Source: Thermoplasmata archaeon
Lineage (GTDB): Archaea > Thermoplasmatota > Thermoplasmata > Lutacidiplasmatales > UBA184
Direction of reading: 5' to 3'
DNA length: 64,000 nt
Assembly (NCBI GenBank): GCA_035532555.1
Contig: DATKQS010000024.1
Coordinates: 162,262-226,261 of the forward strand
A program made the translations under genes and the position numbers. Shown here in pieces: positions 17,446 through 64,000 of the stretch. The notes under the pieces are model-generated. The model made no database searches and was not told where the DNA came from. It was given only the letters and a program-made list of their open reading frames with translations. How positions within the stretch are numbered: position 1 is the stretch's first letter; the number at the start of each line of letters is the position of its first letter.

Positions 17446-17448
17446 GAC

Positions 17449-23953: not shown

Positions 23954-23989
23954 TCCCGCTCGGGACTCCGCGGGCGCTGTAGGGGAGGT

Positions 23990-25604: not shown

Positions 25605-25619
25605 GAGGGCGCACGATCG

Positions 25620-26747
25620 ATGACCACTTCGCTGCTTTCCGTCTCCACCGCTCTCTCGTCGATCCTGCTCAACGGCGTGGGATCGATCTTTCCGGCGCCG
25701 ATCCAGGGTTGGCTGACGAACGGGAACACGATCGATGCGCTGGGGATCCTGATCTTCGGGGTCATCCTGCTCGCCGCGAGCATGCTCAACACGATCTTCC
25801 TGATCTGGTGGGAGCGCAAGCTCCTCGGGCGGTTCATGGACCGGCGCGGCGCGATGCACGTCGGCTACGCCGGGCTCCTGCAGAACTTCGCGGACGGGTT
25901 CAAACTGTTCCGCAAGGACACCGTGCGCCCCCGGGACGCGGATTCGATGGGGTTCTTCGTCGGCCCGACCGCCTACCTCGTCACGAGCCTCGTCATCTTC
26001 GCCATCCTCCCCATCTCCACGGGATGGAATTCCGGGAATCTCCCCCTGAGCCTCCTGCTCGCGATCACGATCTTCTCCTTCGCGCCGCTCTTCATCTTCA
26101 TCAGCGCCTGGTCGAGCAACAACAAGTACTCGCTGATCGGCGGGATGCGCTCCGCCGCGCAGATGATCGCTTACGAGGTCCCGATCCTCCTCGCGATCGT
26201 CGCCGTCGTCATCGTTTCCGGCACGTTCAGCCTCGACACGATCGTCGCCGAACAGCAGAACTACTGGTACTGGGGACCGCTCTTCCTCGCGATGGTCGTC
26301 TTCGTCGCCGGAATGCTCGCCGAGATGGAACGGATCCCGTTCGATCTCCCCGAGGCCGAGGCGGAGCTGGTCGAGGGTTGGAACACCGAGTACGGCGGGA
26401 TGATGTTTGCGTACTTCATGCTCACCGACTACGTTCGAGTCCTCCTCGGATGCTTCCTCATCGTCCTGCTCTTCCTCGGCGGCTGGACGATGCCGAGCTG
26501 GGTGCCGAGCGCCTGGACGAGCTTCCCGCTCGCGGGCATCTTCTGGTTCATGCTCAAGGCCTACGCGGTGTTCACCGTCTTCGTCTGGATCCGAGCCTCG
26601 CTGCCTCGCGTGCGCACCGACCAGCTCCTCCGTGTGGGCTGGAACCGCATGATCCCGCTCAGCCTCGTTTCGATCGTGCTCGCGGCGGGACTCGTCCTCG
26701 CCAAGTGCATCCCGGTCTTCGGTTGCCTCCCGAACCTGGGGGGATGA
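25620..26747 (+). CDS. nuoH: NADH-quinone oxidoreductase subunit H
   Basis: 'WWERKLLGRFMDRRGAMHVGYAGLLQNFADGFKLFRKD' is the NuoH/ND1 signature; 8 TM helices. Confidence 0.9.
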   Translation: MTTSLLSVSTALSSILLNGVGSIFPAPIQGWLTNGNTIDALGILIFGVILLAASMLNTIFLIWWERKLLGRFMDRRGAMHVGYAGLLQNFADGFKLFRKDTVRPRDADSMGFFVGPTAYLVTSLVIFAILPISTGWNSGNLPLSLLLAITIFSFAPLFIFISAWSSNNKYSLIGGMRSAAQMIAYEVPILLAIVAVVIVSGTFSLDTIVAEQQNYWYWGPLFLAMVVFVAGMLAEMERIPFDLPEAEAELVEGWNTEYGGMMFAYFMLTDYVRVLLGCFLIVLLFLGGWTMPSWVPSAWTSFPLAGIFWFMLKAYAVFTVFVWIRASLPRVRTDQLLRVGWNRMIPLSLVSIVLAAGLVLAKCIPVFGCLPNLGG

Positions 26748-27541
26748 GCAGGCAACGATCCATGGCGGGTGCACAGGCCGAGGAGAAAACGAAGCCGAGC
26801 CGGTCGATCCTGTGGGTCGCCCGGCCGATGCTCACGGCGGCCCGTCAGTTCGGTCGCAGCCTCATCCGGCCGAGCACGATCGTCTACCCGTTCGAGCGCC
26901 TCGAGGACCCGAAGTTCCGCGACCGCGTCGGGGTCGGCTCCGGCATGCCCATCGGGGTCGGGCACATCTGGGACAACTACCGAGGCGTGCACGCGCTGAA
27001 CATCGCCACGTGCATCAGCTGCAACCTGTGCGCGTTCAGCTGCCCGGATCTGTGCATCGACATGGTCACGGTCCCCGGTGGGGACCCGAAGCACCCGAAG
27101 AAGAGCCCCCAGATCGACTACGGAAAGTGCAGCTACTGCGGCTTCTGCTCGGACGCCTGCCCCGAGGGCTGCCTCACGATGACCACGCGCTACGAGCTGT
27201 CGGTCACCAAGCGCGCGGAGATGGTCTACTCCCCCCAGAAGCTCCAGGAAGTCTTCGAGCGAAAGCTTCCGATGAATCCGGTCCGCGTCGAGCGGCCGGC
27301 GAACGAGGACGCGATCCTGCTCGAACCGCCGCTGTGCATCGGATGCAACGCATGCGCGCGGGACTGCCCCACCAATTGCATCACCATGCTCGATATCCCG
27401 AAGGCCGAGCCGAAGCCCGGGGAGAAGGTCGCGAAGCGGATCTGGAAGGAGCCGGTCGTTAACGATTCCGACTGCGTGCGCTGCGGTACCTGCATCAGCG
27501 TCTGCCCGAAGGAATGCCTGTTCTGGGGGACTCGCACGTGA
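26744..27541 (+). CDS. nuoI: NADH-quinone oxidoreductase subunit I with an additional C-terminal 2x[4Fe-4S] ferredoxin domain (four Cys clusters in total)
   Basis: 'CISCNLCAFSCP' and 'CSYCGFCSDACP' form the NuoI core; 'CIGCNACARDCP' and 'CVRCGTCISVCP' form the extra domain. It is the in-frame tail of the 1023-aa off-frame track ORF. ATGA overlap with nuoH. Confidence 0.85.
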   Translation: MSRQRSMAGAQAEEKTKPSRSILWVARPMLTAARQFGRSLIRPSTIVYPFERLEDPKFRDRVGVGSGMPIGVGHIWDNYRGVHALNIATCISCNLCAFSCPDLCIDMVTVPGGDPKHPKKSPQIDYGKCSYCGFCSDACPEGCLTMTTRYELSVTKRAEMVYSPQKLQEVFERKLPMNPVRVERPANEDAILLEPPLCIGCNACARDCPTNCITMLDIPKAEPKPGEKVAKRIWKEPVVNDSDCVRCGTCISVCPKECLFWGTRT

Positions 27542-28026
27542 GCCCCGAGGAACTGGCGTTCCTCGCCCTCGCCTTGATCGCGATTGTCACGGGCACGCTG
27601 GCCCTGCTCGTGCGCGAATTGATCCACACGATCGTCTGGATCGGGGTGTTCTTCGTCGACCTCGCCGCGCTCTACTTCCTCCTCCTCGCCCCCTTCCTGG
27701 GGGTCCTCCAGCTCGGCGTGTACGCCGGCGCGGTGACGATCCTGCTCCTGTTCGGTATCATGGTCACGCGCAAGCGGATCTTCTCCCGGGAGGCCGCGAC
27801 CGGGATCACGGCGGTTCCGGTGGCGCTCGCCGTCGTGGCGTTCATCTTCCTGCTGATCGCCTTACCCGAGTTCCCCCAAGGTGAGCTCACCGTCCGTTCC
27901 TACGACCCGTCCCTCCTCTCCCAGAACCTCTTCGGCCCCGGGGGGCCGTGGCTCCTCCTTCTCGGTCTCGTGATGCTCAGCGCGCTGATCGGCGCGATCT
28001 ACCTCGTACGGGAGGGTCGCGAATAG
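27514..28026 (+). CDS. nuoJ: NADH-quinone oxidoreductase subunit J
   Basis: Five TM helices; 'LQLGVYAGAVTILLLFGIM' is ND6-like. Start may instead be the GTG at 27538, giving a GTGA overlap with the nuoI stop. Confidence 0.8.
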   Translation: MPVLGDSHVSPEELAFLALALIAIVTGTLALLVRELIHTIVWIGVFFVDLAALYFLLLAPFLGVLQLGVYAGAVTILLLFGIMVTRKRIFSREAATGITAVPVALAVVAFIFLLIALPEFPQGELTVRSYDPSLLSQNLFGPGGPWLLLLGLVMLSALIGAIYLVREGRE

Positions 28027-28356
28027 ATGACGACGCTCGCGATCACCGGGTTCCTCGCTCTGTCCTTCGCGCTCTTCGCGATCGCGATCTTCGGGATCCT
28101 CACGCGTCGGAACTTCATCCTGCTCCTGGTCTCGCTGGAGATCGGGATGAACGCCGCGATCCTGAACTTCGTCTACTTCGCCGCGCTGGCGCCCGTGAAC
28201 GCGGGATCGACGAGCGGGCTATCCGGTCAGTCGATCGCGGTCGTGCTGATCGGCTTCGCCGCGACCGAGATCGCGGTGGGACTCGCGATCGTGCTCGCGC
28301 TCAACCGTTCGAAGGGATCGATCAACGTCGCCGACTCGACCACCCTGAGGAACTGA
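28027..28356 (+). CDS. nuoK: NADH-quinone oxidoreductase subunit K
   Basis: 109 aa, three TM helices; 'LLLVSLEIGMNAAILNFVYFA' is ND4L-like. Confidence 0.85.
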   Translation: MTTLAITGFLALSFALFAIAIFGILTRRNFILLLVSLEIGMNAAILNFVYFAALAPVNAGSTSGLSGQSIAVVLIGFAATEIAVGLAIVLALNRSKGSINVADSTTLRN

Positions 28357-28368
28357 GGAGGAGTCTCG

Positions 28369-30366
28369 ATGGACCTATCGATCCTGTTCGGCTGGGCGTT
28401 CCTCGTACCGCTCCTTCCGGCACTCGCCTTCGTGATCATCGGGGTCCTGGGCAAGCACCTCGGACGGTTCGAGCACGGAGGCTGGATCGCGGTCCTTCTC
28501 TCGGGAGCGGCGATGGTGCTCGGGGTCCTCATCGCGGTCGGCGAGATGCTGAACCCGAACTCGTACACCGACGTCAGCTACACCTGGTTCCACGTCGGCG
28601 CCTCCGGACCGTTCGCCAACGGGGTCTCCTTCGTCGTGGGGACGCTCGTCGATCCGATCTCGGCGTTGATGCTCATCGTGGTCACGGTCGTCGGATTCCT
28701 CGTGATGCTGTACTCCGTAGGGTACATGCACCACGACGAGGGTCTCCCTCGGTACTACGCGCTGCTCTCGCTGTTCCTGACGGCGATGCTCGGCGTGGTC
28801 CTCTCCGACAACCTGCTCGAGTTCTTCCTGTTCTGGGAGCTCGTCGGCGTTTGCTCGTACTTCCTCATCGGGTTCTACTGGCGCAAGCCGAGCGCCTCGA
28901 GCGCGGCGAAGGAGGCGTTCCTGGTCACGCGGATCGGCGACGTGATGTTCCTCCTCGGAATTTTCATCTACTTCTCGGTCTACGCGATGACCGGCCCGAA
29001 CGGCGGCTGGGCCGCGAACGGTTTCCTGTTCGTCCACGGGAGTACGTCGTTCATCCCGATCGGCGCCCCGGGGAGCAGCACGCTGCTCACCGTCGCGGGT
29101 CTCATGTTGCTGGGCGGAGCCGCCGGCAAGAGCGCCCAGTTCCCCCTCGATGTGTGGCTCCCGGACGCGATGGAAGGCCCCACGACCGTCTCCGCGCTCA
29201 TCCACGCTGCGACGATGGTCGCCGCCGGCGTCTATCTGCTGGTCGTGGGGAGCATCTTCCTCGGAGGGTACACCTCGACCGTCCTGTTCGCGATCGTGGC
29301 GGTCGGAGGGTTCACCACCTTCTACGCGGCCACCATGGCCGTCGTCAATACCGACATCAAACGGGTGATCGCGTACTCGACGATCAGTCAGCTCGGCTAC
29401 ATGGTCCTCGCCGTCGGAGCCGGCTTCGCCATGGTCGGCCTGTATCAACTGTTCACGCACGCGTTCTTCAAGGCGCTCTTGTTCCTTGCCGCGGGCGCCA
29501 TCATCCACACGATCGTCACGCAGGACCTGTTCCGGATGGGCGGTCTTGCGAAGAAGATGCGCTACACGTCGATCGCGTTCTTAATCGGCGCGCTCGCGCT
29601 CTCGGGGATCCCGCCGTTCGCCGGGTTCTGGAGCAAGGACGACGTCCTGGCGTCGGTGTATAGCCAGCTCGGGGCGCACCCGGAGTACTGGCCGTTCTTC
29701 ATCCTGGCCTTCGTAACGGTCTTCCTGACGGCCTACTACATCTTCCGGGTCTACTTCCTCGCCTTCTCCGGCGAACGCACCCGAGATGCCAGCCTGCCCG
29801 CGGCGCACGAGGTCCCCTGGGTGATGCTGGTACCGATGATGGTCCTTGCCGGGTTCGCGGTCGTCGCCGGACTCTTCGTCTTCGTCCCGAGCTTCGGGTC
29901 GCTGTTCACGGGGATCCCCGGCCTTGCGACCAACGTGCCCCCATCGTACGGACCGACCGACCTCCTCCTCTCGGCGATCTCGGTGACGCTGGCCGGCGCC
30001 GGGATCCTCCTCGCGTGGGTTCTCTGGGGCAACGGCCGCGTCTACGAGCTCAGGGCGAGCTCGCCCGCCCACTCGATCCGCAACCTCCTCCTCGCCCGGT
30101 ACCACGTCAAGGCGGCCTACGATTGGGTCGGGATGGTCGGCATGTACACGGTCGCCCGGGCCGCCGATTTCTTCGACCGGTTCGTCATCGACGGTGCCGT
30201 GAAGGGGTTCGAACGCTCGTTCCGCTCGATGAGCGACGGGATGCGTCGGATCCAGACCGGGCTCGTCTCCGACTACGCCGCGTATGTCGTCGCCGGGGTC
30301 ATCGCGGTGTTCGTTCTCCTGCTGTTCGTCGCGCCGTACCTCGCGTCGTTGTTCGGAGGTGGCTAG
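28369..30366 (+). CDS. nuoL: NADH-quinone oxidoreductase subunit L (antiporter-like)
   Basis: 665 aa; 'WLPDAMEGPTTVSALIHAATMVAAGVYL' is the Mrp/ND5 antiporter-module signature. Confidence 0.9.
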   Translation: MDLSILFGWAFLVPLLPALAFVIIGVLGKHLGRFEHGGWIAVLLSGAAMVLGVLIAVGEMLNPNSYTDVSYTWFHVGASGPFANGVSFVVGTLVDPISALMLIVVTVVGFLVMLYSVGYMHHDEGLPRYYALLSLFLTAMLGVVLSDNLLEFFLFWELVGVCSYFLIGFYWRKPSASSAAKEAFLVTRIGDVMFLLGIFIYFSVYAMTGPNGGWAANGFLFVHGSTSFIPIGAPGSSTLLTVAGLMLLGGAAGKSAQFPLDVWLPDAMEGPTTVSALIHAATMVAAGVYLLVVGSIFLGGYTSTVLFAIVAVGGFTTFYAATMAVVNTDIKRVIAYSTISQLGYMVLAVGAGFAMVGLYQLFTHAFFKALLFLAAGAIIHTIVTQDLFRMGGLAKKMRYTSIAFLIGALALSGIPPFAGFWSKDDVLASVYSQLGAHPEYWPFFILAFVTVFLTAYYIFRVYFLAFSGERTRDASLPAAHEVPWVMLVPMMVLAGFAVVAGLFVFVPSFGSLFTGIPGLATNVPPSYGPTDLLLSAISVTLAGAGILLAWVLWGNGRVYELRASSPAHSIRNLLLARYHVKAAYDWVGMVGMYTVARAADFFDRFVIDGAVKGFERSFRSMSDGMRRIQTGLVSDYAAYVVAGVIAVFVLLLFVAPYLASLFGGG

Positions 30367-31851
30367 ATGGATTTCTCGACCCTCCCGATCATACCGATCA
30401 CCCTCGGCACGCTGGCGGCCGGCACGGTGCTCACCTTCGCGAGCGGTCGGTGGGCCCGCTGGGTGGCGCTCGCGACCTCGGTCGTCTTCCTCCTCGAGAT
30501 CGGCCTGATGTTCCTCGGCTACACGAGCTGGCCGGGCCGGTCGAGCTCGCTGGTCCCGCAGTTCGGGGAGTACCAGTCGTATCCATGGATCAGCCTGTCC
30601 TGGCTGCAGATCAACTTCACGGTCGGGATCGACGGGATCTCGCTGATCCTGATCCTGCTGACGGGGTTCCTCCAGATCGCGACGGTCGTGTACACCTGGA
30701 ACGAGACGAAGCGCCCCTCCGCCTGGTTCGGCCTCGTCCTGATGACGTGCCTCGGGAGCTTCGGGGTCTTTGTCTCGCTCGACATCCTCCTGTTCTTCCT
30801 GTTCTGGGAGACCGTGCTCGTCCCGATGTTCTTCATCATCGGGTACTGGGGCGGCCCCAACCGCCGGTACGCCGCGCTCAAATTCTTCGTGTACACCCAC
30901 GTCGCATCGATCGTCATGCTCATCGGTCTGCTGGCCCTCGTCTTTTACTCCGGGGCCAGCTCGTTCGACTTCTCCTCGATCTACGCCGCGGCCCAGGGTC
31001 TCACAGGGATCGTCCCGGTGGTGCTCTTCCTCTCGCTGTTCTTCGGCTTCGGCGTCAAGTTCCCGATCGTACCGTTCCACACCTGGCTGCCCGACGCGCA
31101 TGTCGAGGCTCCCACGGGAGGCTCGGTCCTGCTCGCCGGGCTGTTGCTCAAGCTCGGAGGCTACGGGCTGATCCGGTGGGCGGTGATCATCCTACCGACC
31201 ACGCTGACCCAGGTCGATCCGATCCTGTTCTTCGTCGCGTTCCTGTCGATCGTTTGGGGAGCCGTGCTCTCGCTCTCCCAGCGCGATCTCAAGCGGATGA
31301 TCGCGTACTCGTCGATCAACCACATGGGGATCGTCCTCCTCGCGATCTCCCTGAACTCCGCGCTCGGGCTCACGGCCGCGGTGCTGCTCATGTTCGCGCA
31401 CGGCGTTGTCAGCGCGCTCCTGTTCATGGGGGCGGGGACGTTCCACCATACCTACGGGACGCGCGACATCCCGAGCGTCGGGGGCATCAACTCGCGCACG
31501 CCGATCCTCGCCTCGTTGATCATGATCGGGAGCTTAGCGTCGCTCGGGTTACCCGCGTTGATCAGCTTCCCCGCCGAGTTCGCGGCCCTGCTCGCCACGT
31601 GGGACGGGCTCACGTACCTCGTGCTGATCCCGCTCATCGGGCTCGTCGTCACCGCGGCGTTCTACATCTGGATGATGCAGCGCGTGCTGTTCGGTCCTCC
31701 GAAAGGGATCCCGAACGACGCGCACGACGTCCCGCCGGCCGAAGGGCTCGGGATGGGCATGCTCGCGGCGCTCACCGTCATCTTCGGGGTACTGCCGTTC
31801 CTGCTCGTGAACGTGATCACGATGTCGCCGATCACGGGGTGGCACGGATGA
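30367..31851 (+). CDS. nuoM: NADH-quinone oxidoreductase subunit M
   Basis: 494 aa; 'HTWLPDAHVEAPTGGSVLLAGLLLKLGGYG' is the ND4 signature. Confidence 0.9.
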   Translation: MDFSTLPIIPITLGTLAAGTVLTFASGRWARWVALATSVVFLLEIGLMFLGYTSWPGRSSSLVPQFGEYQSYPWISLSWLQINFTVGIDGISLILILLTGFLQIATVVYTWNETKRPSAWFGLVLMTCLGSFGVFVSLDILLFFLFWETVLVPMFFIIGYWGGPNRRYAALKFFVYTHVASIVMLIGLLALVFYSGASSFDFSSIYAAAQGLTGIVPVVLFLSLFFGFGVKFPIVPFHTWLPDAHVEAPTGGSVLLAGLLLKLGGYGLIRWAVIILPTTLTQVDPILFFVAFLSIVWGAVLSLSQRDLKRMIAYSSINHMGIVLLAISLNSALGLTAAVLLMFAHGVVSALLFMGAGTFHHTYGTRDIPSVGGINSRTPILASLIMIGSLASLGLPALISFPAEFAALLATWDGLTYLVLIPLIGLVVTAAFYIWMMQRVLFGPPKGIPNDAHDVPPAEGLGMGMLAALTVIFGVLPFLLVNVITMSPITGWHG

Positions 31852-31864
31852 ACGGAGGCGGTCG

Positions 31865-33457
31865 ATGACCTTCGCGGATTTCGCGCTGCCGTTCCTCCCG
31901 GAGATCCTCGTCCTGGTGGGCGTTCTCCTCGTGCTCATCCTCGACGTCCTCGGCGTCAAGCGGATCGAGGTGTTCGGGTCGATCACGGTCGGGGCGACGC
32001 TCCTTGCGCTCCTGTTCGTGATCGCCGATCTAGGGTTCCTTCCGTTCGCCGCGCTCTCCACGGTGCCGGCGGGCCAGATTGACATCTCGCTCGCCGTCGT
32101 GGGAACTCCGTTATACTCGTTCACGAGCCTCGGGTTCGTCTTCCAGGCGATCTTCCTCTCGGCGACCCTCCTCGTGAGCCTCGCCTCGATGAGCCGACCG
32201 AGCTACGAGAAGGGCGCCGCGGTCTTCTACGCGCTCGTTGGGATGGCCACGCTCGGGATGCTCCTCGTGGGCATCGCCTCCGACCTGATCTTCCTGCTCC
32301 TCGCGATCGAGGTGACGGCGATCTCGACGTACCTCCTCGTCGGGTACACGCGCCGCGACCCCCGCTCCCTCGAGGCCGCGATGAAGTTCTACGTCATCGG
32401 CGCGCTCTCGACCGTGATCAGCTTCTTCGGAGCGTCACTGCTCTTCGGCGCGTATGGATCGACGAACCTGTACTACATCCGGAGCGTTGGTGGCGCGGTC
32501 GGATACCCCACGCTGATCCTCCTCGGATACGGTCTTTTGATCGCCGGGCTCGCGTTCAAGGTCACGTTGGTCCCCTTCCACGCCTGGGCTGTCGACGTGT
32601 ACGACGGCGCTCCGTCGGACGTCTCGGCGTTCCTCGCGGGCGGCACGAAGAAGATCGGGCTGTTCGCGTTCTTCCTGGTCTTCTTGGGGCCGGTGCTGTT
32701 CTTCACGACCACGGGCACCAGCAATCCGTTCAACGCCGGAGTGCTGAACACGGGGCCGATCTTCCAGATCGTGCTGGGGGTGCTCGCCGTCGTGACGATG
32801 ACCGTGGGCAACGTGCTCGCGCTGATGCAGAAGGAGATGAAGCGAATGCTCGCCTATTCCTCGATCAGCCAGGTCGGCTACATGATGATCGGCATTGTGA
32901 TCGCCACCTCGCCGGCGATCGCCGGGGCCACGCTGCAGATCTTCTCGCACACGTTCATGAAGACCGGGGCCTTCCTCGTCGTCGCCGCGGTCGCGAGCCT
33001 CGGGATCGGCCCACTCATCTCCGACTGGAAGGGGCTCGGCCAGCGCCGGCCGTGGCTGAGCGTCGCCTTCGCGCTGATCCTCCTGAGCCTCGCGGGCGTT
33101 CCGCTCACGGTCGGCTTCGTGTCGAAGTTCGTGCTGTTCAGCTCGGCGGTCCAGGCGCAAGGCTACTTCATCTGGCTCGCGGTCGCCGGTCTGCTCAACA
33201 GCGCGATCTCCGTGTTCTACTATGGGCGAGTGCTGAAGGTGATGTTCTTCGACGCTCCAGATCCCGTGGTGGAAGTCCCGGCGGCGGGCCCGACCGCGCC
33301 GGCGCCCGAGCGCATCCCCGTGGGCGGGCTCGGGTACGCCCGCGCGAGCACGATCGCCCTCATCGCCGTCGTCATCGTCACCTTCGGCATCTTCCCTCAG
33401 GTGATCCTCGGACCGATCCAGAGCGCCGCGCAGCACTTCCTCATCGCCGGACCGTGA
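31865..33457 (+). CDS. nuoN: NADH-quinone oxidoreductase subunit N
   Basis: 530 aa; 'FHAWAVDVYDGAPSDVSAFLAGGTKKIGLFAF' is the ND2 signature. Confidence 0.9.
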   Translation: MTFADFALPFLPEILVLVGVLLVLILDVLGVKRIEVFGSITVGATLLALLFVIADLGFLPFAALSTVPAGQIDISLAVVGTPLYSFTSLGFVFQAIFLSATLLVSLASMSRPSYEKGAAVFYALVGMATLGMLLVGIASDLIFLLLAIEVTAISTYLLVGYTRRDPRSLEAAMKFYVIGALSTVISFFGASLLFGAYGSTNLYYIRSVGGAVGYPTLILLGYGLLIAGLAFKVTLVPFHAWAVDVYDGAPSDVSAFLAGGTKKIGLFAFFLVFLGPVLFFTTTGTSNPFNAGVLNTGPIFQIVLGVLAVVTMTVGNVLALMQKEMKRMLAYSSISQVGYMMIGIVIATSPAIAGATLQIFSHTFMKTGAFLVVAAVASLGIGPLISDWKGLGQRRPWLSVAFALILLSLAGVPLTVGFVSKFVLFSSAVQAQGYFIWLAVAGLLNSAISVFYYGRVLKVMFFDAPDPVVEVPAAGPTAPAPERIPVGGLGYARASTIALIAVVIVTFGIFPQVILGPIQSAAQHFLIAGP

Positions 33458-33462
33458 GCCCT

Positions 33463-34563
33463 ATGGAGGAGTTCGACGTGGTGGTCGTCGGCGCCGGGCC
33501 GGCCGGCTCCCTCGCCGCCCGTGCCGCGGCCGAAGCGGGCGCGCGGACCCTACTGCTCGACCGCCGCGCCGAGCTCGGAGAGCCCGTCCAATGCGGCGAG
33601 TTCCTGCCTACCCCGGGCGAGCTCGCCGACATCTTCCACTCCCCCGAGCTGATCGAAGAGGCGTTCCAGATCCCCCCGGAGACGATCCTGCGGGAGACCC
33701 ACTGGATGGCATGCGTCTCTCCTTCGGGCCACCGGTTCCGCTTCCCACTCGCGGGCTACATGGTCTCCCGACGGGCGTTCGACAAGGCCCTGGCCTGCGC
33801 GGCCGAGGGCGCCGGGGCCGAGCTGCGCTACCCCGTTGGGGTCGCGCGCGTGAGCGGCGAGCGGGTCGAGATGGTGAACGGTACGACCGTCCGCGCGAAG
33901 GTCATCATCGGGGCCGACGGCCCGACCTCGACCGTCGCCCGCTCGGTGGGCTTCGCGCCCTCCCGGGAGATGTTCCGCATGATCACCGCGACCGCCGACG
34001 GGGTCGGCGGTGATGAGATCGACCTGTACTTCGGGCGCTCGGCTCCCGGAGGGTACGCCTGGTCGTTCCCGCGCTCGACGGACGCGAACGTCGGCCTCGG
34101 TGTCACGGAGCTACCGCCCGGCGAATCGCTCAGTTCACTGCTCGACCGCTTCCTCAAGCGGGAGCGGCTCGGCGTCGCCCGCGACCGGACCCGCTGGTGG
34201 GTCCCCATCGGGCCCCCGCCCGACACGCTCGTGTTCGGCCGGGCCCTGTTCTGTGGGGATGCCGCGAACCTCGTGATGGCCACGAACGGCGGAGGGATCC
34301 CGACGGCGATGCTCAGCGGCTGGCTCGCGGGCCGTGCGGCGGCGCGGCACGCCCGGGAAGGCGCGCCTCTCTCCGAGTACGATCTTGCCTGGCGCTCGGT
34401 CCTCGCCCCCCCCCTCGCCCGAGGCCACCGGATCAAGGAAACGACCGACCGGGTCGTCCGTTCGGACCTCGCCCTGACGCTGGGAATGAGATATATTGGA
34501 GCGTCGGGATTGGATGCGGTGATGCGCCTGAGGTGGCCGCGCCGCCTCGGGAGGGCTTCGTGA
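33463..34563 (+). CDS. geranylgeranyl reductase family protein (digeranylgeranylglycerophospholipid reductase-like)
   Basis: 'MEEFDVVVVGAGPAGSLAARAAAEAGARTLLLDRR' is an FAD Rossmann motif; 'GDAANLVMATNGGGIPTAM'. Five bp after the nuoN stop. The track ORF is extended upstream in frame. Confidence 0.85.
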   Translation: MEEFDVVVVGAGPAGSLAARAAAEAGARTLLLDRRAELGEPVQCGEFLPTPGELADIFHSPELIEEAFQIPPETILRETHWMACVSPSGHRFRFPLAGYMVSRRAFDKALACAAEGAGAELRYPVGVARVSGERVEMVNGTTVRAKVIIGADGPTSTVARSVGFAPSREMFRMITATADGVGGDEIDLYFGRSAPGGYAWSFPRSTDANVGLGVTELPPGESLSSLLDRFLKRERLGVARDRTRWWVPIGPPPDTLVFGRALFCGDAANLVMATNGGGIPTAMLSGWLAGRAAARHAREGAPLSEYDLAWRSVLAPPLARGHRIKETTDRVVRSDLALTLGMRYIGASGLDAVMRLRWPRRLGRAS

Positions 34564-54878: not shown

Positions 54879-55766
54879 CTACGAACGGCCTCGGTTCCGC
54901 CGGCGGCCGCCCACCAAGATGAGAGATATAAAGGCCACGGCTGCGAAGGCGACCACGCCGAGCACGATCCACAGCGTGTAGTCCGGTGCGGGCCCCGTGA
55001 TGTAGAAGGAGTAGGAGTAGCTGCCCTGCCCGTTCGGGAACGTGACGAGGCCCTTGTCCGCGGTCGGGATCGCGAGCGTGAAGGTGTGCGAACCCGCGGA
55101 GAGGGGCGCCGAGGGGTAGGCCCAGTTGATGGTGTAGACCTCGCCCGGCGTCAGCGTGGGCACCTTGTAGTTGCCCGCATAGGAGCCGTCGAGATAGATG
55201 TTGATCAGGAAGCTCAGGATCGTGGAGTTCGGTCCGGCGGTGATCGTCACCGTGAGCGTGTAGGGCTTCACGACGAGGACGGCGTACGTCAGGTTGATCG
55301 ATTGGTTCTTGTCGAGGTAGACGGAGGAGATCATCACGTGGATCGTGACCGTCTCGCTGACGTTGCTTACGGTGAGGCTGCTGAACTGAGCGGTCGAGTT
55401 GATGAGGGCCCCCTTCGTGGGGCTCATGGAGACCTTGGTGAGGTTGGTCGCGCTGAGGGCGATGTAGTAGGTGATGTTCCCGATCATCACGCCCGAAGAG
55501 CTGTAGGCCGGGCCCCCAACCGCATTGATCGTGTAGAACTGCGTCGCGTTGTATCCGAGCACCGTCGGGCCCGTGATCGATCCGGTCAGGGGGGGCGATG
55601 CGGCGGTGGCAATCGGGTTGGCTGATGGCGGTGGGGCGGTCGGGCTTGCCGCCGCGCCACCGGCGAAGCCGATCGCGCCGGCGGCGAGGAGGGTCGTCAA
55701 TAGGACCGCGAGGAAGACCGGGCCGGCCATGCGGCCGCGAGGGTTTCCGCTCATCGTCGCTCCCAC
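54879..55766 (-). CDS. secreted, C-terminally anchored cell-surface glycoprotein
   Basis: Signal peptide '[29 protein letters not shown]'. At least 9 N-x-S/T sequons (NAT, NIT, NLT, NST, NVS, NQS, NLT, NST...). C-terminus '[35 protein letters not shown]' (PDY, TM, Arg-rich). May start at the Met at 55730; the longer form overlaps the aglB stop by 16 nt. Confidence 0.6.
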
Positions 55767-58700
55767 CGGCGCGTGCGGTTCCAGCGCCAGACGACCACCA
55801 GAACGAGGAGCGCGATCGCCGGGACGAACACCAGGACCGGGACGAGCCAGTCCGGCAGGGTCGCCGGGGGACTACCTACCCCTGCTCCGACCAGGTGGAA
55901 GGTCGACGGGTCGACCGATATCGTCACGACCGGCACCGTCACTTGGGAGGTGCGCACGAGGCTCGAGTTCGCGGAGGACGTCGCCGCGCTGATCGTGACC
56001 GATCCCGGCAGGATGAAGATCGATCCCCGGGCGGTCAGGTTGAGCAGGTAAGTGGTGTTCGCACCGGCGGCGAGCTTGACGGGCCCGGAGATGACCGCGC
56101 CGTTCCGCGTGATGTTGTACGACCAACCGAGACTCGCGAGCCGGGTCCCGTCCACGACGTTCATCGTGGCCGTCTCGTTGATATTGCCCGTGTTGGCGAT
56201 GTAGAACGGTATCAGGATCCGCGTGGGGGCGACCTGAACGGGGGAGGTCGACGGCACCGAACCGAGCGAGAGGCCGTAGTACGGCACGACATGGACGATC
56301 GGAGCCGGCGCGACCTGGGCGAGGGTCGTCCCGTTCGAGGCGACGATCGAGAGCACGATCGGCGGATGCGCCACGAGCTCGCCCGCCGGCACCCGGATGG
56401 TGACCCCGACGTTCACGGCGCCGGAGGTCGCTCCGGCCGGGAGCGTGACCGTGGACGGAGAGAAGGTGAAATTCCAGTAGGACGGGCTTCCGACGAAGTG
56501 CACGGTCTCTGGTCCGGTGCCGTTGCTCGTCAGCCGGAAGGAAAAGCCCGTGCTCGCTCCTCCGGGGATCGTAGAGGACGTCGGCCCCGAAAGCGTGCCC
56601 GTGACCCGGTACTCGAAGGCGTAGGCGAGCGTGAGGGTCGAAGCGAGGTTGCCCCGCACGATCGAGATGGTTTGGGACACGGTCGCGTTCGCGGGGGGTC
56701 CGTACGGCGTGCCCACGGCATAGGCGTGGACGGTGTAGCTTCCCACGGGCAACGAGACGGTGTACGGCACGCCGAGCGCGAGGCCCGTAAACACGGCGGT
56801 GGCGCTCGTTCCGGTGGCTCCCACGCTGAACGATACCGTCCCACCCGCGATCCCGCCCGCCGTCGGAGCGACCACCGTTACGCTGTAGCTCCAGGTCGGC
56901 TGGAGCGGGATCGACGAGGGGCCGACGGACGGTATCAGAATCACCTGACCGATCGCGGCGAGGGGGTCGCTCGGACCTCCACCGGACGCATAGATCGTGT
57001 ACTCCCCAGGGGCGAGGAGAACGGAGAACGTCCCGTTCGTCGCGGTGAGCGTCGTCACGTTCAGCGACGGGTAGGGGCCCGAGATGCGGATGGTTCCCGA
57101 TACCGGAAGCGTCCCAGCGGGGTTCGTCAAGGTTCCGTTGAACCAGACCGGGTCGATCCTCGCGGTCGTGACGATGGTGCAGACGGTGCTCGTCGTCGCG
57201 GGGACCGTGCAGGTCGCTCCGACGGCCGAGTAGGTGGTGTAGATGCTTCCGTTGGGGCCGGGGCCGAGGAGGGTGTCGCCGAAGGTGACGGTGTAGGTCG
57301 TCGCGGCCGGTAGGAGGACCGAGTACGATCCGGCGCTCGCGCTGCCGGTGACGTTGGCGAGGTCCGGGGCGTGGAACGTCAATGTCGCGTTCGAGTTGAG
57401 GATCTGGCCGGACGAGTCCACGACCGTCCCGTTGACGAGGTTGGCCCGCTGGGACAGATCGACGGGCGTCGTGACCTTGGCATTGTCGCCGACCTGTACG
57501 AGAGAGAGGTTTCCGTAGTATTGTCCGTTCCCCTTTCCGGTCGCGTAGAGGGAGTACGTTCCAGGGATCGCGAAGAAGCCCTTCTCGAACTGGGTTCCCG
57601 TCACGGTCGTGTTGACGAGCGCGGAGCGGAGGTGAACGGTGACCGAGGAGAGCGGGACGCCGGCCGGTACGACGAGCGTTCCGGTGACCAGGACCTGGGA
57701 GATCAACAAGAGCGAGAGCCGGGTCTGGCTGGTGCCGACGAGGATCGTGGTCGAGAGCGCCTGCGGCGGCAAGAAGATCGTGCTATTCCCGATCGTCGCG
57801 CGAGCGCCCACCCCGTAGACTCCGGGGTACATGGTGAACGAGTAGACCGGGCCGCCCGCGACCGTGAACGACCTCGCGGTCGGGCTCGAGCTCGTGAGGT
57901 TCACGGTGATCGGAACGCCCGCCGGCACCCCGTAGACGGTCAGGGTCACCGGGACGGGGGTCAGCGGCACGACGAAGTGCGTGAGGGCGACCAGTCCGGT
58001 CGGCGTGATCCCGCATTGCTGGGTCGTGTTGAAACCGAAGTCGGAGGCTCGCACGCAGTAGCTGCCGCCGGAGACCTGTGCCGCCACCAGCATCGTCACG
58101 CTCCCCTCCGCATCTGCGAACGCGGTCTCGGTCGGACCCCCCGGACCGGCCGAGATGTTCACCATCGCGAATGCGGCCGGATAGAGCTGACCGGTGGAGT
58201 TGATCGGGCTCCCCGACTGGAAGTGGACGAAGTTGCCGACGACGGGAGTCAGCGAGATCGTGCTGCCGTAGACGAGCGAGACCGAGGTCATCGTCGTGTA
58301 GACCGGGGTCGCGGCGGTGCTCAATCCCTGGACCGCCTGCACGGTGTACGGGCCCGAGGGCAGGAGCAGGGTGAACGCTCCGCTCGCGTTCACAGGGGTC
58401 ACGATCGAAATGCCCGCCGCGTTGTAGGCGATCACGAACGTGCTCGTGGAATTCTGAGCGTCGGCCTTGCCCACGATGCCCGAGAGAGGGAATGCCGGCG
58501 CGAGGGCAAGCGTGGTCGGATTGGTAAAGTCGAGGCTCGCGGGAGTATGGATCGATGTCAGGCCACTATACAGCCGGTTCCCCACGTACCCCACCGCGTA
58601 GATCGAGTAGTTGCCCGTGGGCAGGGTCCCCGAGACCACTCCGTTCGAGTTCGTGGTGAAGACCATCGCCGTCGCCTGGGCCGTCGCGTAGTAGCTCAAT

Positions 58701-61700
58701 GCCGAAGCGCTCGAGGAGAGCGTCGGTATCGGGACGAACCGGACGGGGAACCCCGCGACGGGCTGCCCGTTCGCCGTCACCGAAAGGTCGAAGGAGACGC
58801 TCGGGGTGATCACGAGGGTCAGGTTGATCCGCTCGCCGGGCTTCGTCACGATGGCGGCTTCCCCGAGCGATCGGTAGCCCGCGTACGGGCCGCTCGCGCT
58901 GACCGTGTAGTTTCCGGGCCCGAGGTTCCCGAGCACGAACCTGCCGGTGGAGTTGGACGTGGTGCTGGATACGACGCCGGTCGCCGAGATCGCGGTCACG
59001 GTCGATCCCGATACGGAGGCACCGCTCGGTAAGGTGACCGTGCCCTGGAAGATCGCCGGTGCGAGCCCGACCGTGGCGTTCTCGGGAGTGCTCGGTTTCA
59101 CGGTGACCGCGCTCTCTGTGTAGTTCGTTCCGTCGTAGAGGATGTTGTAGTTGTAGACGCCCGGCGGAACATTCGACAGCAGGAACGATCCGCTCGCGTC
59201 CGTGGTCGCCGTGAGCTTGGTCTGGTTGACGGTCCCCCAGAAGACGACCTTCGCGCCCACCAGGAGCTGGTCGATCGAGGAGTTGTAGGAGGTTTGGTTG
59301 GCGTTGTTCCAGTACACGAAACCCTGCAGGCTGGAGGAGTGCACGACAATGGGGACGACCATGTTCGGGGTGTTGTACCCGAACCCCTGCGCGGCGGAGA
59401 CATTGATCTTCATCGAGGAGAGGAGCACATTGCCGGCCTGAGAGAGTCCCTGGAACGTCCCGGTCGTCACGTTGACGGTGTCCTCCCCGGGAGGAAGGAT
59501 CACGGAATAGGAGCCGTCCGCGCTGGTCCGGGCCATCTGGTGCGGGATCCCCCATGAGTCGTAGACGGTCACCATCGCTCCCGGGACCGGCGCGCCGTTC
59601 GGCAGGTTGACCGTGCCGATGAGCGGCTGGCCGGCGTAGTAGACCAGCATCGACTCCCCGCCGTTGAAGTACGACGTGGCGGAGGTGTCGGCGGTCCCGC
59701 CCGTCTGCGCCGCGAGCGCCGTGGCGGCGGGCAGGTTCATGGCGACATTGCAGTTCGGATTGGAGGAGGTCTCCCCCGGCGGACAGTAGTAGGCGGTCTT
59801 GTAGGCGACCTGGAAGTGCTGGAGCATCCAGCCGGGCTCGATCGGAGAGCTCGCGGCAGCGCCCTGGAGCCCCGGGATCCCGTTCGCGAGTCCGATATCG
59901 GTTCCGTTGTACCCGATGTAGATGTGATAGATCATCGACCGGTAGAACGGCGTGAAATAGTTGATGTAGTACTGAACCGCGCTAACAGACGCCGGCAAGG
60001 TGCCGGCGTCGTAGTACCTCCCATCGGACCCGAGGATCGTGACGTTGAAGTACGTCTTGGGGTTGCCACCGGAGTCGATGACGCGCCCGGTCAGGTCCGC
60101 CGGAGCGTAGAAGATCCCCGTGTTCTGGCCGCTGAATGGGAAGAGGCGGCTGTCGCTCATCGAGTAGCGAATCGACCAGCCCGTGTAGGACTGGAGGTCG
60201 TTGTAGAGCTTCGCGACCCCGTTGAGGGGAAGGACCTGCGCGATGTAGTACGAGATCACCATGTACATCGCATTCAGGCTCGTGAGCGTGTTCGGATTGA
60301 CCGCCAGGAAGATCTGCGGGTTATTGATGACCTGATAGTAGTCGGTCGTCAGGTTGACCAAGAACCCCTTGATGATCGTCGGGCTGACCCCGTCGGCCGC
60401 GAGGATCTGGTTGATCGGTGCGGACAGGGTCGCGCCCGGTTGGCCCTGGGCCCCGACGAGCAGCGTGGCGACCAACACGCCAATTGCGATCGACTCGTTC
60501 TGGCTCAGGAGGAACTGGCCGCTCGGGTCGATCCCGTTCTGGAAGTTGTCGGCGACGGCCGGGTGCTGACCTTGATCGATCGCCTGGAATCCGTAATCCC
60601 ACCAACTGATGAACGCCGGACGTTGCGGAGCCGGTACGTTCGAGTCCTGCATGGCGAGCCAGTTGTACGCGGCGGAATCGTACAGGTTCGGCGTGTCGAT
60701 GGAGGAGCCGGCTGCTCCGAGGTAGTAGCCGCTCGCGCCCGCACCGCTCGCCTGGAGCCAGGACGGTAGCGAGTGGTAGATCTGGGCCGAGTACTGGGAT
60801 TTCTCGTTGCTCGGGATCCCCGCATCCATCGCGTACCAGACGTTGGGGACGAGGAGCCCGACCACGACGATGATCACGAGCACGTGACGCGGCTTGATCG
60901 AGCGTCGGAACGCCCTCCAGCGACTGCGACGCTCCTCGGCGAGGGAGCTCATGCTCTCGCGCATCTCCGAGTAACGGCCCACATCCCAGAGCCGCTTGAT
61001 CGCGAACGCGGGCAGGAGCGCGAACGCCGGGGCCCCCAGCAGCAGGAACTTCGACGCCGAGAAGGGCAGGTAGAGCGAGAGGATCCCGAAGACGAGGAAC
61101 AGCGTCAGCCAGCGCTGGAACTTGTTGCGGACCAAATCCCAAGCGACGAGGGCCACGCCCACGAAGGCGAGGAAGAACGTGATCACTCCGTAACTGACGA
61201 TTAATTGGTCGATCGAGGGCGACTGGGCCTCGGCGACGGTCGAGTAAATGAGTGTCTTGGTGAAGTAGCCCTGTCCCGTGACCAGGTTCGTGAAGTAGAC
61301 CGGGCTCACGATCGACAACGCGAGGGTGGCGAACCCCACGATGGCCACGAGGATCGGGAGGGAGATCACCCAGGGGTAGTCCCGCATCAGCAGGAAGGGG
61401 AGCAGGAGGAGAAGGGTGCCGAAGAACAAGAGGAGCGGCAGGTCGAACCAGTTCGTGAACTCTCCCTGCACGAGGTAGTAGGGCACCGCGAGCGGGAAGC
61501 CCACGAGCCCGACGATCCAGGTGACGACGTAGACCCCGAAGGAATCGACGCGCCGGATCCGCTCGATGATCATCGTGATCAAGATGAACACGGCGATGAT
61601 CGCCACGAGGTAGGTGTACCCCTGCCAGGCGAGCGCCAGCGCTCCGAAGCAGACTCCTGCGAACACCGCCCATTTGACGGCGCTGCGTTCGTAGCGTAGG

Positions 61701-62338
61701 AAGTTCCTAAGCCCGGCCCGGAACGACCCGGCGGACCGGTAGCTGACCACCCACCGACGCGAGCCGACCGCCTTCACGGCCCGCATGTACGCGTAGAGCG
61801 CGACCAAAATGATGAACGTGTAGAACGAGAGATAGTTGGCGTAGCCGTAGATCGATTCGTTGATGCTGGCGACGAGGAACGGGGAGATGATGGCGGCGAT
61901 GAGACCGACCCGGCGGCCGCCGACCTCTCGGCCGATGAGGTAGGTCGGGAAGACGCTGAGCGCGGCCCAGAGGGGGGCCTGAAGGTCCAGGAACCACGCC
62001 CCGGCGACGTTGGCATTCCCGCCGAAGAACGGGGCGAAGACGATGCCGAGGATGGCGTTCATCCAGTCGAACAGCGGCTCTCGCGGGTTGATCGCACCGA
62101 TCGGGTAGCGCAGCAGCGGATCGTGGATCAGATTCGTGTGATTCGCAATGATGTAGCTCATCACGCGCGAATGGTAGTACGAATCGGAACCGCCCGCGTA
62201 GGTGTACAGCGGCCCCCACAGTTCTACGACGGGCCCCGCCCAGATGGTACGGACGGCGAACGCGATGCCGAACGCCGTGAGGAGGATGGCAGCCGTCCAG
62301 CCGTGCTTATGCCACCAGCCTGATTTCTCCGATTCCAT
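55751..62338 (-). CDS. aglB: oligosaccharyltransferase AglB/STT3 fused to a roughly 1500-aa sequon-rich multi-domain extracellular region with a second C-terminal membrane anchor
   Basis: N-terminal roughly 600 aa with 13 TM helices and '[17 protein letters not shown]' (the WWDYG catalytic motif of STT3/AglB/PglB). It continues for about 1550 aa with repeated prealbumin/CarboxypepD_reg-like beta-sandwich signatures ('[12 protein letters not shown]', '[17 protein letters not shown]', '[18 protein letters not shown]', '[16 protein letters not shown]', '[16 protein letters not shown]') and dozens of N-x-S/T sequons. It ends '[35 protein letters not shown]'. Start set at the ATG 62338 (a GGAGG motif precedes it); the track begins at an upstream TTG at 62377. 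Confidence 0.85.
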
Positions 62339-62383
62339 CGGCCTCCGGCTCTCCGAGCCGGCGGCGCGCGAGACCAAGGGCCG

Positions 62384-62445: not shown

Positions 62446-62982
62446 CTACCCGAGCGCTCGGAACCGGTAGAACGATCTCCCGTCGGCCAGCGGGTAGGCC
62501 TCGATGCGGACCTCGTCGCCGATCTTCAGGGCCGTCCACGGCCGGCCCTCGATCCGGCCGAAGAGGCGCAGGGGAGAGCCGGCAAGATCGACCAGGCCGA
62601 CGGCGAAAGGCACGTCGGCCTCCATCCCGAGGGGCGCCCCGCCCAGCACCGCGCTGAACGCATAGATCCGCCCGTGTTCGGGCAGATCGATCCACTCGAG
62701 CTCTTCACCGTGACAGATGGGACAGGCGACGCGCGGTGGCCAGTGGACCTCGCCGTCCCGGGGGCAGCGCGTGGTCGAGACACGGCCCTCCTTGAGCCGG
62801 TCGTAGAACCGCGATAGCCGAGTCTGCCCGGCGCCTTGGAGTGGGAAGAAGTCCAGAAGGAAGGGAGGCGAAGGCGCCACCACCACCTTCGGACGCGGCG
62901 GCTCTAAGGGGACCGACGTGGGCGGTGCGGGAGCGACGGTCACCCGGGGGCGCTTACGGCCGGGGGGCGCGGATTCGCTCAC
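62446..62982 (-). CDS. DUF35-family OB-fold/zinc-ribbon protein (thiolase-associated)
   Basis: 'RCPRDGEVHWPPRVACPICHGEEL' (rubredoxin-like Zn ribbon) and an OB-fold 'GRIYAFSAV...FAVGLVDLAG.PLRLFGRI'. GTG start in a GTGA overlap with the thiolase stop; Pro-rich N-terminal extension, so the true start may lie further in. Confidence 0.6.
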   Translation of the reverse strand: MSESAPPGRKRPRVTVAPAPPTSVPLEPPRPKVVVAPSPPFLLDFFPLQGAGQTRLSRFYDRLKEGRVSTTRCPRDGEVHWPPRVACPICHGEELEWIDLPEHGRIYAFSAVLGGAPLGMEADVPFAVGLVDLAGSPLRLFGRIEGRPWTALKIGDEVRIEAYPLADGRSFYRFRALG

Positions 62983-64000
62983 GGCCCGCCACCTCCTTCG
63001 TAGACCATCACGGAGTGCACGTTGGCGCTCCCCGAGAGATTGTGAACGAGCGCGAAGCGAGGATCGGGGACCTGACGCGCCGCCGGGACGGCTCCCGCGA
63101 ACTGTTGGAAGACCTCGACAGCTTGTGCGATCCCCGTCGCCCCGAGCGGGTGGCCGCATCCGAGAAGCCCGCCCCGCGGGTTGATGACGATATCGCCACC
63201 GAGATCGCTCCGCCCTTCAAGCGCGTACGGGCCTCCCTCGCCCGGCGGGCACAGACCGAGCGCCTCGTACTCGACGATCTCCGAGATCGTGAAGCAATCG
63301 TGGATCTCGGCAAAGTCGATGTCCTGGATGGTGAGCTTGGCCCGGCCGAGCGCCTCGCCGGCGGCTCGCGTCAAACCGGGCCACTGCGTCAGCGACCCCG
63401 CGTGGGCCAGGTTGTGGAAGTCGGAGTACTGACCGGTCCCCCGAATCCAGGCCGGACGATCGGTGAAGCGGCGAACGAACTCTTCCCCGGCCACGACCAC
63501 GGCCGACGCACCATCGGTCATCGAAGAACAGTCTCCCAGCCGCAGCGGGGGCGCGACCACCGGAAGGCCGAGCAGCTTCTCGGAAGAGAACGTCTTGGCG
63601 TAGAACTGCGCGGTCGGGTTCGTATTCGCGAACCGGTGGTTCTTCTCGGAGACCCGCGCCAACGCTTCCGCCGTCGTCCCGTGCTCGAGCATATGGCGCT
63701 GGGCCACCATCGCGAAGAACGGCGGCGCGGTCGCTCCGTGCGGCCCGTCCCACGCCCGGTCCATCACGCATCCCATCGAACTGTTCGCCTCGGCCATTGA
63801 CGGCAGGTTCATCTTCTCCACGCCGACCGCGACGGCCACGTCGGAAAGCCCGGCCGCGATCGCGGCGTAGGCCGAACGGATCGCGGACTGACCGGAAGCG
63901 CACGCGAGCTCGGTGCGCTGCAGGATGCGATACGGCCGAAGGCCCATCTGTTCGGCGGCGAGCGGCGCCACATGCGACTGGAACGCGAAACGCTCGGGCT
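62979..64000 (-). CDS. thiolase (acetyl-CoA C-acetyltransferase / SCP-x-type), 5' end outside the window
   Basis: 'NPRGGLLGCGHPLGATGIAQAVEVFQQ' (C-terminal catalytic His/Cys region) and 'GLCPPGEG'. The frame is open to the window edge. Confidence 0.8.
   Translation of the reverse strand, partial: PERFAFQSHVAPLAAEQMGLRPYRILQRTELACASGQSAIRSAYAAIAAGLSDVAVAVGVEKMNLPSMAEANSSMGCVMDRAWDGPHGATAPPFFAMVAQRHMLEHGTTAEALARVSEKNHRFANTNPTAQFYAKTFSSEKLLGLPVVAPPLRLGDCSSMTDGASAVVVAGEEFVRRFTDRPAWIRGTGQYSDFHNLAHAGSLTQWPGLTRAAGEALGRAKLTIQDIDFAEIHDCFTISEIVEYEALGLCPPGEGGPYALEGRSDLGGDIVINPRGGLLGCGHPLGATGIAQAVEVFQQFAGAVPAARQVPDPRFALVHNLSGSANVHSVMVYEGGGGP

Follow-up and report, generated by a model that had tools for sequence, protein, structure and literature searches.

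The question raised by the locus described here is whether one archaeal polypeptide can combine an oligosaccharyltransferase (OST) with a very long extracellular stalk and a second membrane anchor, and what such a protein would be for. Archaeal N-glycosylation has one near-universal enzyme, AglB, which has been treated as consisting of a single subunit of roughly 600–1000 residues. In a 64,000-nucleotide stretch of contig DATKQS010000024.1 from a Thermoplasmata archaeon (the whole analysed stretch is designated below as the window), a gene on the minus strand encodes 2195 amino acids (aa), in which an STT3/AglB module is followed by a sequon-rich β-sandwich region and a C-terminal transmembrane (TM) anchor. 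This organization was proposed in the first-pass annotation, and the open reading frame (ORF), the models, and the homologues now agree on it; likewise the protein is far longer than characterised AglBs, being 2.5 times the length of Archaeoglobus fulgidus AglB-L (AfAglB-L). It is a lineage-specific giant form of AglB of an uncultured, high-GC soil Thermoplasmata archaeon, and it consists of the following parts:

55751..62338, minus strand: coding sequence of the giant AglB, 2195 aa plus TGA stop (intact single ORF; public record HUZ80519.1)
60824..62338, minus strand: GT-C transmembrane module, residues 1–505 (hydropathy, AlphaFold2 (AF2) helices, Foldseek, hidden Markov model (HMM) alignment to AfAglB, column counts)
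59633..60823, minus strand: AglB extracellular globular domain, residues 506–902 (Pfam, AF2, alignments)
56624..59632, minus strand: eleven transthyretin/CarboxypepD_reg-like β-sandwich domains D1–D11, residues 903–1905
55904..56623, minus strand: two CARDB-like β-sandwich domains D12–D13, residues 1906–2145 (AF2, sequence pattern)
55847..55903, minus strand: linker with a conserved L-P-D-W motif, residues 2146–2164 (AF2 predicted local distance difference test (pLDDT) <50 at model residues 1148–1162; motif conservation)
55787..55846, minus strand: predicted 14th TM helix (TM14), residues 2165–2184 (hydropathy, AF2 helix)
55754..55786, minus strand: Arg/Trp-rich, predicted cytoplasmic tail, residues 2185–2195 (family consensus YRWWRTRRWTRR)

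The reading that we favour, and that we hold to have somewhat better than an even chance, is that of an active OST whose peripheral domain has been extended into a fixed, glycosylated arch of 13 domains, which would be tethered by a TM helix, made together with a small partner protein, and used as a built-in scaffold or spacer.

An unusual protein length of this kind could be produced if a frameshift in sequencing or a chimeric assembly had merged an AglB gene with a neighbouring surface-protein gene, and broken versions of the ORF are indeed present in a few related genomes (1996 aa in locus L020; an N-terminally truncated ORF of 2157 aa in locus L002), which could be local assembly errors or pseudogenes. 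Against such an artefact, over 100 assemblies, independent of each other and produced by several projects, contain an uninterrupted ORF of about 2200 aa, megabase contigs included, the junction itself consists of a folded domain with a weak alignment to the terminal domain of AfAglB-L, and the GC content at third codon positions is 0.89 over the ORF as a whole, which is usual for the genes of the window (local GC about 0.63–0.67). Among 5.8 billion proteins searched, the best 120 matches listed include 119 that are 2135–2211 aa long with 50–96% identity and 97–100% coverage of the window protein, and the remaining one is annotated as partial; their alignment contains no more than 4% gaps in every 50-residue block. 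Of the 19 members of the 90% cluster of the window protein 15 are listed, and 13 of these have exactly 2195 aa, while on a 2.31-Mb contig (ERZ25039587) a full-length homologue of 2197 aa was called as one gene by an independent gene caller. The check for frameshift or chimerism proposed in the first-pass annotation thus came out negative, with at least 119 near-full-length homologues in addition to this contig, and we give the artefact next to no chance: it is one genuine, intact gene.

The gene was further located by a genome scan with one genome per species, which returned 581 relatives; the locus counts given below are from the best 80 of these (L001–L080). All 80 lie in archaeal metagenome-assembled genomes (MAGs) from many soil, peat, and mine-drainage projects, 79 of them are titled Thermoplasmata or Ca. 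Lutacidiplasma, and Ca. Lutacidiplasma silvani is among them with 47% identity. The order Lutacidiplasmatales has been described at about 69% GC and 2.1 Mb, with which the window agrees; a haloarchaeal origin, considered on account of the high GC content, was ruled out, as the protein lacks an acidic character and every relative that has a name belongs to the Thermoplasmata. Public record HUZ80519.1 is identical to the window protein and bears the name “carboxypeptidase regulatory-like domain-containing protein”.

The 2195-aa protein is obtained with the ATG at 62338, which is a credible start because it matches M1 of the homologues in the alignment and is preceded by two signals read in the sequence:

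62342..62346, minus strand: Shine-Dalgarno-like GGAGG, its last base 3 nt 5' of the start codon
62385..62390, minus strand: TATA-box-like TTTATA, about 47 nt 5' of the ATG

A TTG at 62377, the start of the mechanically called ORF, was dropped since it sits in the promoter region and the homologues begin at the ATG. Some 40–110 nt 5' of the AglB start, in-frame read-through translations recur across the 80 loci in three registers (IYTPPRSRAPP, LFIPPPGLARR, YLYTPQVSRAAG), so the region of the TATA box is conserved at the DNA level, which suggests that the promoter upstream of the giant AglB is retained from locus to locus. The stop codon TGA occupies 55751–55753 on the minus strand.

The assignment of the N-terminal part to AglB was made by several approaches. 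In both hydropathy and the AF2 model the first 505 residues or so form a helical membrane module, which is followed by a mixed α/β globular domain. In Foldseek the AF2 model of residues 1–1000 found as the best Protein Data Bank (PDB) match the A. fulgidus AglB 7e9s_A (E 4.7e-21, TM-score 0.62), followed by human STT3A/B, yeast Stt3, and PglB, and the family profile matches the AfAglB sequences 5gmy/3waj. The Pfam STT3 model passes narrowly (27.3 bits at a cutoff of 24.5), and AglB_core-like remains below its cutoff (23.9 versus 27). The N-terminal module is the best-conserved portion of the protein, with a per-50-residue identity to homologues of 49–82% over residues 1–650 versus 26–53% in the stalk, and its external loops are the most conserved of all. 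According to these data the AglB identity is well supported, and residues 1 to about 900 are a divergent AglB/STT3 OST. By analogy with AfAglB the module in residues 1–505 would contain 13 TM helices; it would be seated in the cytoplasmic membrane together with the globular domain, its active site facing outward, and would act on exported proteins, whose N-x-S/T sites would receive a lipid-linked glycan.

The catalytic motifs, as defined by Taguchi et al. (PMC8342417), were counted in 120 close homologues and in a wider clade of 121 aligned sequences (the window protein and 120 divergent representatives). The Asp of the first DXD in external loop 1 (EL1) is D52, where G-S-D52 is aligned with G-N-D47 of AfAglB by HMM; it is present in 118/120 close homologues, the other two being gapped, and in 120/121 sequences of the wider clade. 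The TIXE/SVSE motif of EL5 appears as T367-V-A-E370, with T367 in 120/120 and 121/121 and E370 in 120/120 and 120/121 sequences. The WWDYG motif (residues 579–583; nt 60590–60604), seen already in the first-pass annotation, is invariant in the close homologues and differs in one of the 121 wider-clade sequences, which has F at 582. R426 of AfAglB corresponds in the HMM alignment to K430 here, at a position that is R in the wider clade, and D505-A-G...K513 is a plausible DGGK equivalent. The membrane module also carries the EL1 stretch NPREPLFDW at 84–92 and the EL2 variant N160-E161...N168-Y-L170, while the globular domain contains a DK variant, D604-P-x-G-Q608, the conserved sequons N614, N662, N765, and N811, and the invariant pair C852/C863.

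Several facts weigh against the favoured reading. The second DXD of EL2, which in AfAglB is D161-H-H163 and provides metal ligands, aligns with N168-Y169-L170, with N in 118/120 close homologues. In the segment G-I-D604-P-x-G-Q608-F-L-L, aligned with the DK (D-x-x-K) motif that contributes to the Ser/Thr pocket, the lysine position (D-A-A-K in 3vu0) is occupied by the invariant Q608. The NCBIfam model TIGR04154 (archaeosortase A system-associated AglB) gives 225.9 bits over residues 17–808 at a cutoff of 450, the catalytic loops are of low confidence in the AF2 model, and the TM14 sequence is conserved within the subfamily only and not in the wider clade. The AglB part is therefore not “ordinary” as had been stated at first, given the two altered motifs and the weak scores, nor does it end at about 600 residues, since the globular domain extends to about 900.

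These replacements lead to the possibility that in the N-Y-L subfamily the AglB module is inactive and only serves to hold the surface stalk, as a polytopic anchor or a lectin-like binder, glycosylation being left to another AglB. Neither metal-ligand position of the second DXD is retained (N168, L170), whereas D-H-D prevails in the wider clade; Q608 stands in place of the DK lysine and K in place of the wider-clade R430, and the Pfam and NCBIfam scores are weak. Nevertheless, D52, E370 of TIXE, and WWDYG do not vary, and conservation is highest in the external loops. In the second-DXD column, D-H-D is found in 83, R-M-H in 14, and N-Y-L, which marks the subfamily of the window protein, in 8 of the 121 wider-clade sequences, so variation at this site is also a property of other sublineages (R-M-H, G-Y-D). 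Within the N-Y-L subfamily E87 (Pro in most others) and D91 are invariant, and an acid alternates between D160 (D-S, 108/120) and E161 (N-E, 10/120, the window protein included). Because the external loops are the best-conserved portion, the second-DXD site looks rebuilt and not decayed, and D160/E161 may be a relocated acid which, with E87 and D91, would be a candidate metal ligand. Neither the window nor, up to 10 kb away from the gene, the best 80 loci contain a second STT3-like gene, which at this local scope is weak evidence. On this balance an inactive module appears unlikely to us. Among other members of the wider clade (P0121–P0269) the second DXD also reads G-Y-D, D-W-D, L-F-D, R-A-H, or R-H-Y, and Arg in place of the metal-binding Asp could allow metal-independent catalysis in some lineages.

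Beyond the globular domain, the chain runs past the single terminal β-sandwich domain known from AfAglB-L through 13 such domains, which were counted from strand patterns and a recurring P-x-G-x-Y motif. The AF2 model of residues 1000–2195 is all-β, with successive sandwiches and a terminal helix at 2165–2189 (pLDDT 87.9; predicted template modelling score 0.62). Pfam places CarboxypepD_reg four times on the full protein (136.8 bits): D1–D3 exceed its cutoff, D6, D8, D9, and D10 match weakly, and D4 has weak matches to other Ig-like models. For D5, D7, and D11–D13 there is no Pfam match in the window protein, and the β-sandwich call comes from the structure model only; at the position equivalent to D12–D13, just ahead of the anchor, CARDB is matched in the divergent relatives P0199 and P0236. 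A β-sandwich stalk with carboxypeptidase-regulatory-like repeats, as announced by the first-pass annotation, is thus present, with a length of about 1250 residues and not about 1550, because the AglB globular domain runs to about 900, and with the repeat type confirmed by the Pfam cutoff in 3 of 13 domains and weakly in four, the remainder being assigned from the structure model.

The stalk domains are mutually similar only weakly (z ≤ 9.7) and their tandem order is fixed across the family, which points to an old, fixed array; a recent repeat expansion was ruled out on the same grounds. Also, the stalk length is near fixed with few indels, so that the stalk resembles a defined module and not a variable coat protein. 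D1 aligns with the last domain (773–827) of AfAglB-L at −0.1 bits, which is not significant alone and is a hint that the stalk may have grown from the peripheral domain of AglB. The invariant Cys pairs 852/863, 1428/1442, and 1710/1720 are consistent with an extracellular location.

The whole protein contains 43 N-x-S/T sequons. In residues 931–2150 there are 36, versus 14.2 ± 3.4 expected from composition-preserving shuffles, and the same region in homologues has 27–49; 25 sequon columns of the whole protein are kept in at least 60% of the 120 aligned sequences, 4 of them in the AglB globular domain. The dozens of sequons noted in the first-pass annotation are therefore an enrichment above expectation. 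Most window proteins have 0–0.6 sequons per 100 aa, the stalk has 2.95, and the downstream partner 2.7. Two other predicted exported proteins of the window are also sequon-rich: 5197–6273 on the plus strand with 1.7 and 6338–6910 on the minus strand with 1.05 per 100 aa. The latter, a Ser/Thr-rich protein of 190 aa with 2 sequons, begins MNPRIRRRRLRRGRRGVSPIIATILLVAIT, which looks like the class III (type IV pilin-like) signal peptides of archaea. According to this pattern, sequon richness is general to exported proteins and not peculiar to the stalk, and the concentration of sequons in exported proteins argues that N-glycosylation is active in this organism, a further point against an inactive AglB module. 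Judging from the conserved sequons, glycosylation of the stalk is plausible; it would probably take place at about 25 conserved sites and would be done in trans, by other, already folded enzyme molecules.

In the first-pass annotation the stalk was taken for an S-layer-type substrate, a surface-layer (S-layer) envelope protein fused to its own glycosylating enzyme. On this view the molecule would chiefly be a coat subunit that forms a lattice, and its catalytic part would be the foot in the membrane. The stalk is large, has few charged residues, and is rich in Ser/Thr and sequons, a TM anchor with a basic tail stands at its end as in many archaeal surface glycoproteins, and most cultured Thermoplasmatales are without a conventional S-layer (PMC5155288), which leaves room for another envelope protein; the hosts of the giant AglB may lack a conventional wall. 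However, the fold searches of the stalk gave generic transthyretin/Ig-like matches, with no specific homology or fold match to lattice-forming S-layer proteins, and the scores of SlaB do not exceed those of pilins or carboxypeptidase domains. The tethering at both ends and the near-invariant length and domain order are unlike fast-evolving coats, the gene neighbourhood is of housekeeping type with a single small partner, and equimolar amounts of enzyme and coat protein would be unusual. The specific claim of an S-layer-type substrate is accordingly without support, and a coat subunit seems improbable as the main role of the protein.

The second anchor was recognized from hydropathy (Kyte-Doolittle 3.17 for the hydrophobic segment 2165–2183), the AF2 helix, and conservation, as the block 2151–2195 is 60% identical to homologues versus 26–53% in the stalk. 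Its consensus within the subfamily is L-P-D-W-L-V-P-x-L-x-F-V-P-A-I-A-L...Y-R-W-W-R-T-R-R-W-T-R-R. With 13 TM helices, by analogy with AfAglB, the C-terminal domain would be placed outside, and the 14th would bring the Arg-rich tail back into the cytoplasm; the topology predicted in this way is coherent and fits the positive-inside rule. Both the second anchor with its Arg-rich tail and the implied arrangement, in which both ends of the protein are membrane-embedded with an extracellular stalk between them, thus stand as first described. If both stalk ends are bound to one membrane, the stalk must loop, and it would form a closed arch of fixed size, which most likely would be a built-in, glycan-coated scaffold or spacer around the enzyme at the cell surface.

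Signals of archaeosortase processing, PGF-CTERM included, were also looked for: up to E ≤ 10, neither the complete sequence nor the C-terminal 60 aa matched an NCBIfam CTERM model, the motif before TM14 is L-P-D-W and not P-G-F, and no curated CTERM sorting model matched the tail of the partner protein. A common C-terminal signal was also sought among the other proteins in about 1.7 Mb of related loci; as an ending with a TM helix and a basic tail was found in the product of the partner gene only, this comparison is without power.

This partner gene lies directly 3' of the giant AglB and overlaps it:

54879..55754, minus strand: partner gene, 291 aa (HUZ80518.1, “hypothetical protein”)

The protein has a signal-peptide-like N-terminus, 8 sequons, a weak CARDB match, a conserved C-terminal TM, and the tail RRRNRGRS. 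Its ATG overlaps the AglB stop as ATGA (window 55751–55754). The partner is directly downstream of AglB in 69 loci, the overlap is kept in 57 of 66 loci (ATGA in 40, GTGA in 17), and on the 2.31-Mb contig the independent gene caller placed there a 272-aa gene with a 4-nt overlap. The conserved ATGA/GTGA overlap suggests translational coupling, hence that the giant AglB is made in fixed proportion with this small, putatively membrane-anchored glycoprotein, and from the coupling it may be inferred that the two proteins associate physically.

The order thiolase – DUF35/OB protein – giant AglB – small protein – aEF-1beta – YdjM is kept wherever the flanks suffice, in essentially every locus, the five flanking genes being present in 55, 60, 69, 68, and 65 loci, respectively. 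The thiolase and DUF35/OB-fold (ChsH2-like) genes (62446–63971, minus strand) are always directly upstream of AglB and co-oriented with it (55 to 60 loci). We take this pair for the acetoacetyl-CoA thiolase/HMG-CoA synthase scaffold that archaea use in the mevalonate route, from which the dolichol carrier is derived as well; a functional link between the pair and AglB is speculative. In locus L082 a 57-aa ribosomal aS21 gene was called at 17428–17601, between the partner and aEF-1beta, while in the otherwise identical L081 it was not called, which is a gene-calling inconsistency. Elsewhere in the window, a run of co-oriented genes at about 23200–33500 on the plus strand has a strong negative AT skew down to −0.28 and very hydrophobic products, and from their N-terminal sequences these look like an NADH:quinone oxidoreductase (nuo) operon.

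The distribution of the giant form was extended by a profile of the N-terminal 1000 residues, which against 1.84 billion cluster representatives gave 338 matches at E ≤ 1e-30. Among the 149 newly returned representatives 88 have at least 1950 aa, the longest being 2775 aa, and 73 of these 88 end in a TM helix with a basic tail; the named members are MAGs of Thermoplasmata, Thermoplasmatota, or Euryarchaeota. Four divergent members contain STT3 together with several CarboxypepD_reg/NOMO-like domains, with CARDB just before the anchor in two of them. The weaker matches include eight shorter Thermoplasmatota AglBs of the same clade with 1100–1290 aa (among them P0259, P0261, and P0267; 367–432 bits against the N-terminal profile), which share the CarboxypepD_reg-type domains after the catalytic part but differ in having few added β-sandwich domains, no C-terminal TM anchor or basic tail, and 8–16 sequons per protein; one form of 1442 aa is anchored. 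By these comparisons the giant, doubly anchored AglB is a class-level innovation with visible intermediates.

Among the known systems AfAglB-L (3WAJ, 5GMY, 7E9S; 868 aa), the best structural match to residues 1–1000, shares the 13-TM GT-C module, the first DXD Asp, TIXE, WWDYG, and the extracellular globular domain. The window protein differs from it by 12 more β-sandwich domains, the 14th TM, N-Y-L instead of D-H-H in the second DXD, and Q in place of the DK lysine, at about 15% sequence identity.

A second comparison is offered by the eukaryotic OST, with which the window protein shares the STT3 fold. In the cryo-EM structures of the latter, the single-pass accessory subunits ribophorin I/Ost1 and OST48/Wbp1 have lumenal β-rich domains and C-terminal TM helices that pack on STT3. 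Here the extra domains and the TM are in one polypeptide and consist of transthyretin-like repeats with no detected Ost1/Wbp1 homology, so the likeness would be one of architecture only. STT3 itself bears a functionally important N-glycan (PMC8342417). Along these lines the giant AglB can tentatively be seen as the single-chain equivalent of a multi-subunit OST, in which TM14 and the partner TM would pack on the catalytic bundle like Ost1/Wbp1, the glycosylated arch would act as a chamber or spacer by which exported substrates are held in place or the envelope thickness is determined, and the metal ligands of the N-Y-L form would have moved to E87, D91, and D160/E161; we consider this elaboration doubtful as a whole, with a small but real chance of being right.

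The best sequence-profile match to the stalk in the PDB is NOMO of the BOS complex (9C7V; 9c7v_B, E 4.1e-17, several repeats), a chain of transthyretin/Ig-like beads that ends in a TM helix and a short tail, and AF2 supports a like chain and helix here; the relative P0134 even passes the Pfam NOMO_5th cutoff. The length of NOMO sets the spacing of endoplasmic reticulum membranes (PMC8327139). In contrast to the window protein, which begins with the AglB membrane module, NOMO is not an enzyme but a type I protein that has a signal peptide and whose N-terminus is free; its partners are nicalin and TMEM147, and the flanking genes examined carry no Pfam annotation resembling either of them. The resemblance is real at the domain level and intriguing in architecture, yet it is built on a very common domain. 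Finally, archaeal C-terminally anchored surface glycoproteins (PGF-CTERM/archaeosortase substrates and SlaB-type stalks) are likewise sequon-rich β-sandwich chains with a hydrophobic helix and a basic tail, from which the window protein is distinguished by the lack of a sorting-signal match and of an S-layer fold match and by an N-terminus that is a 13-TM enzyme module and not a signal peptide.

In the literature searched no description of the giant AglB was found, and the Lutacidiplasmatales paper with its supplements is silent on AglB/STT3 and glycosylation. Thus, a class-level clade of soil, peat, and mine-drainage Thermoplasmata has, instead of the usual form, an AglB of 2000–2800 aa with 13 extra extracellular domains and a second anchor, an undescribed yet widespread version of a well-known enzyme and a blind spot in both annotation and literature. 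The loss of the canonical second DXD in one sublineage that has retained other catalytic residues amounts to a natural experiment on the metal site of OSTs. If the stalk and the partner are built-in accessory modules, the multi-subunit eukaryotic OST would have a prokaryotic parallel in the giant AglB, and with it a tractable model for the roles of such subunits; if the stalk is an envelope element, the glycosylation machinery and the cell-surface architecture would be joined in one molecule.

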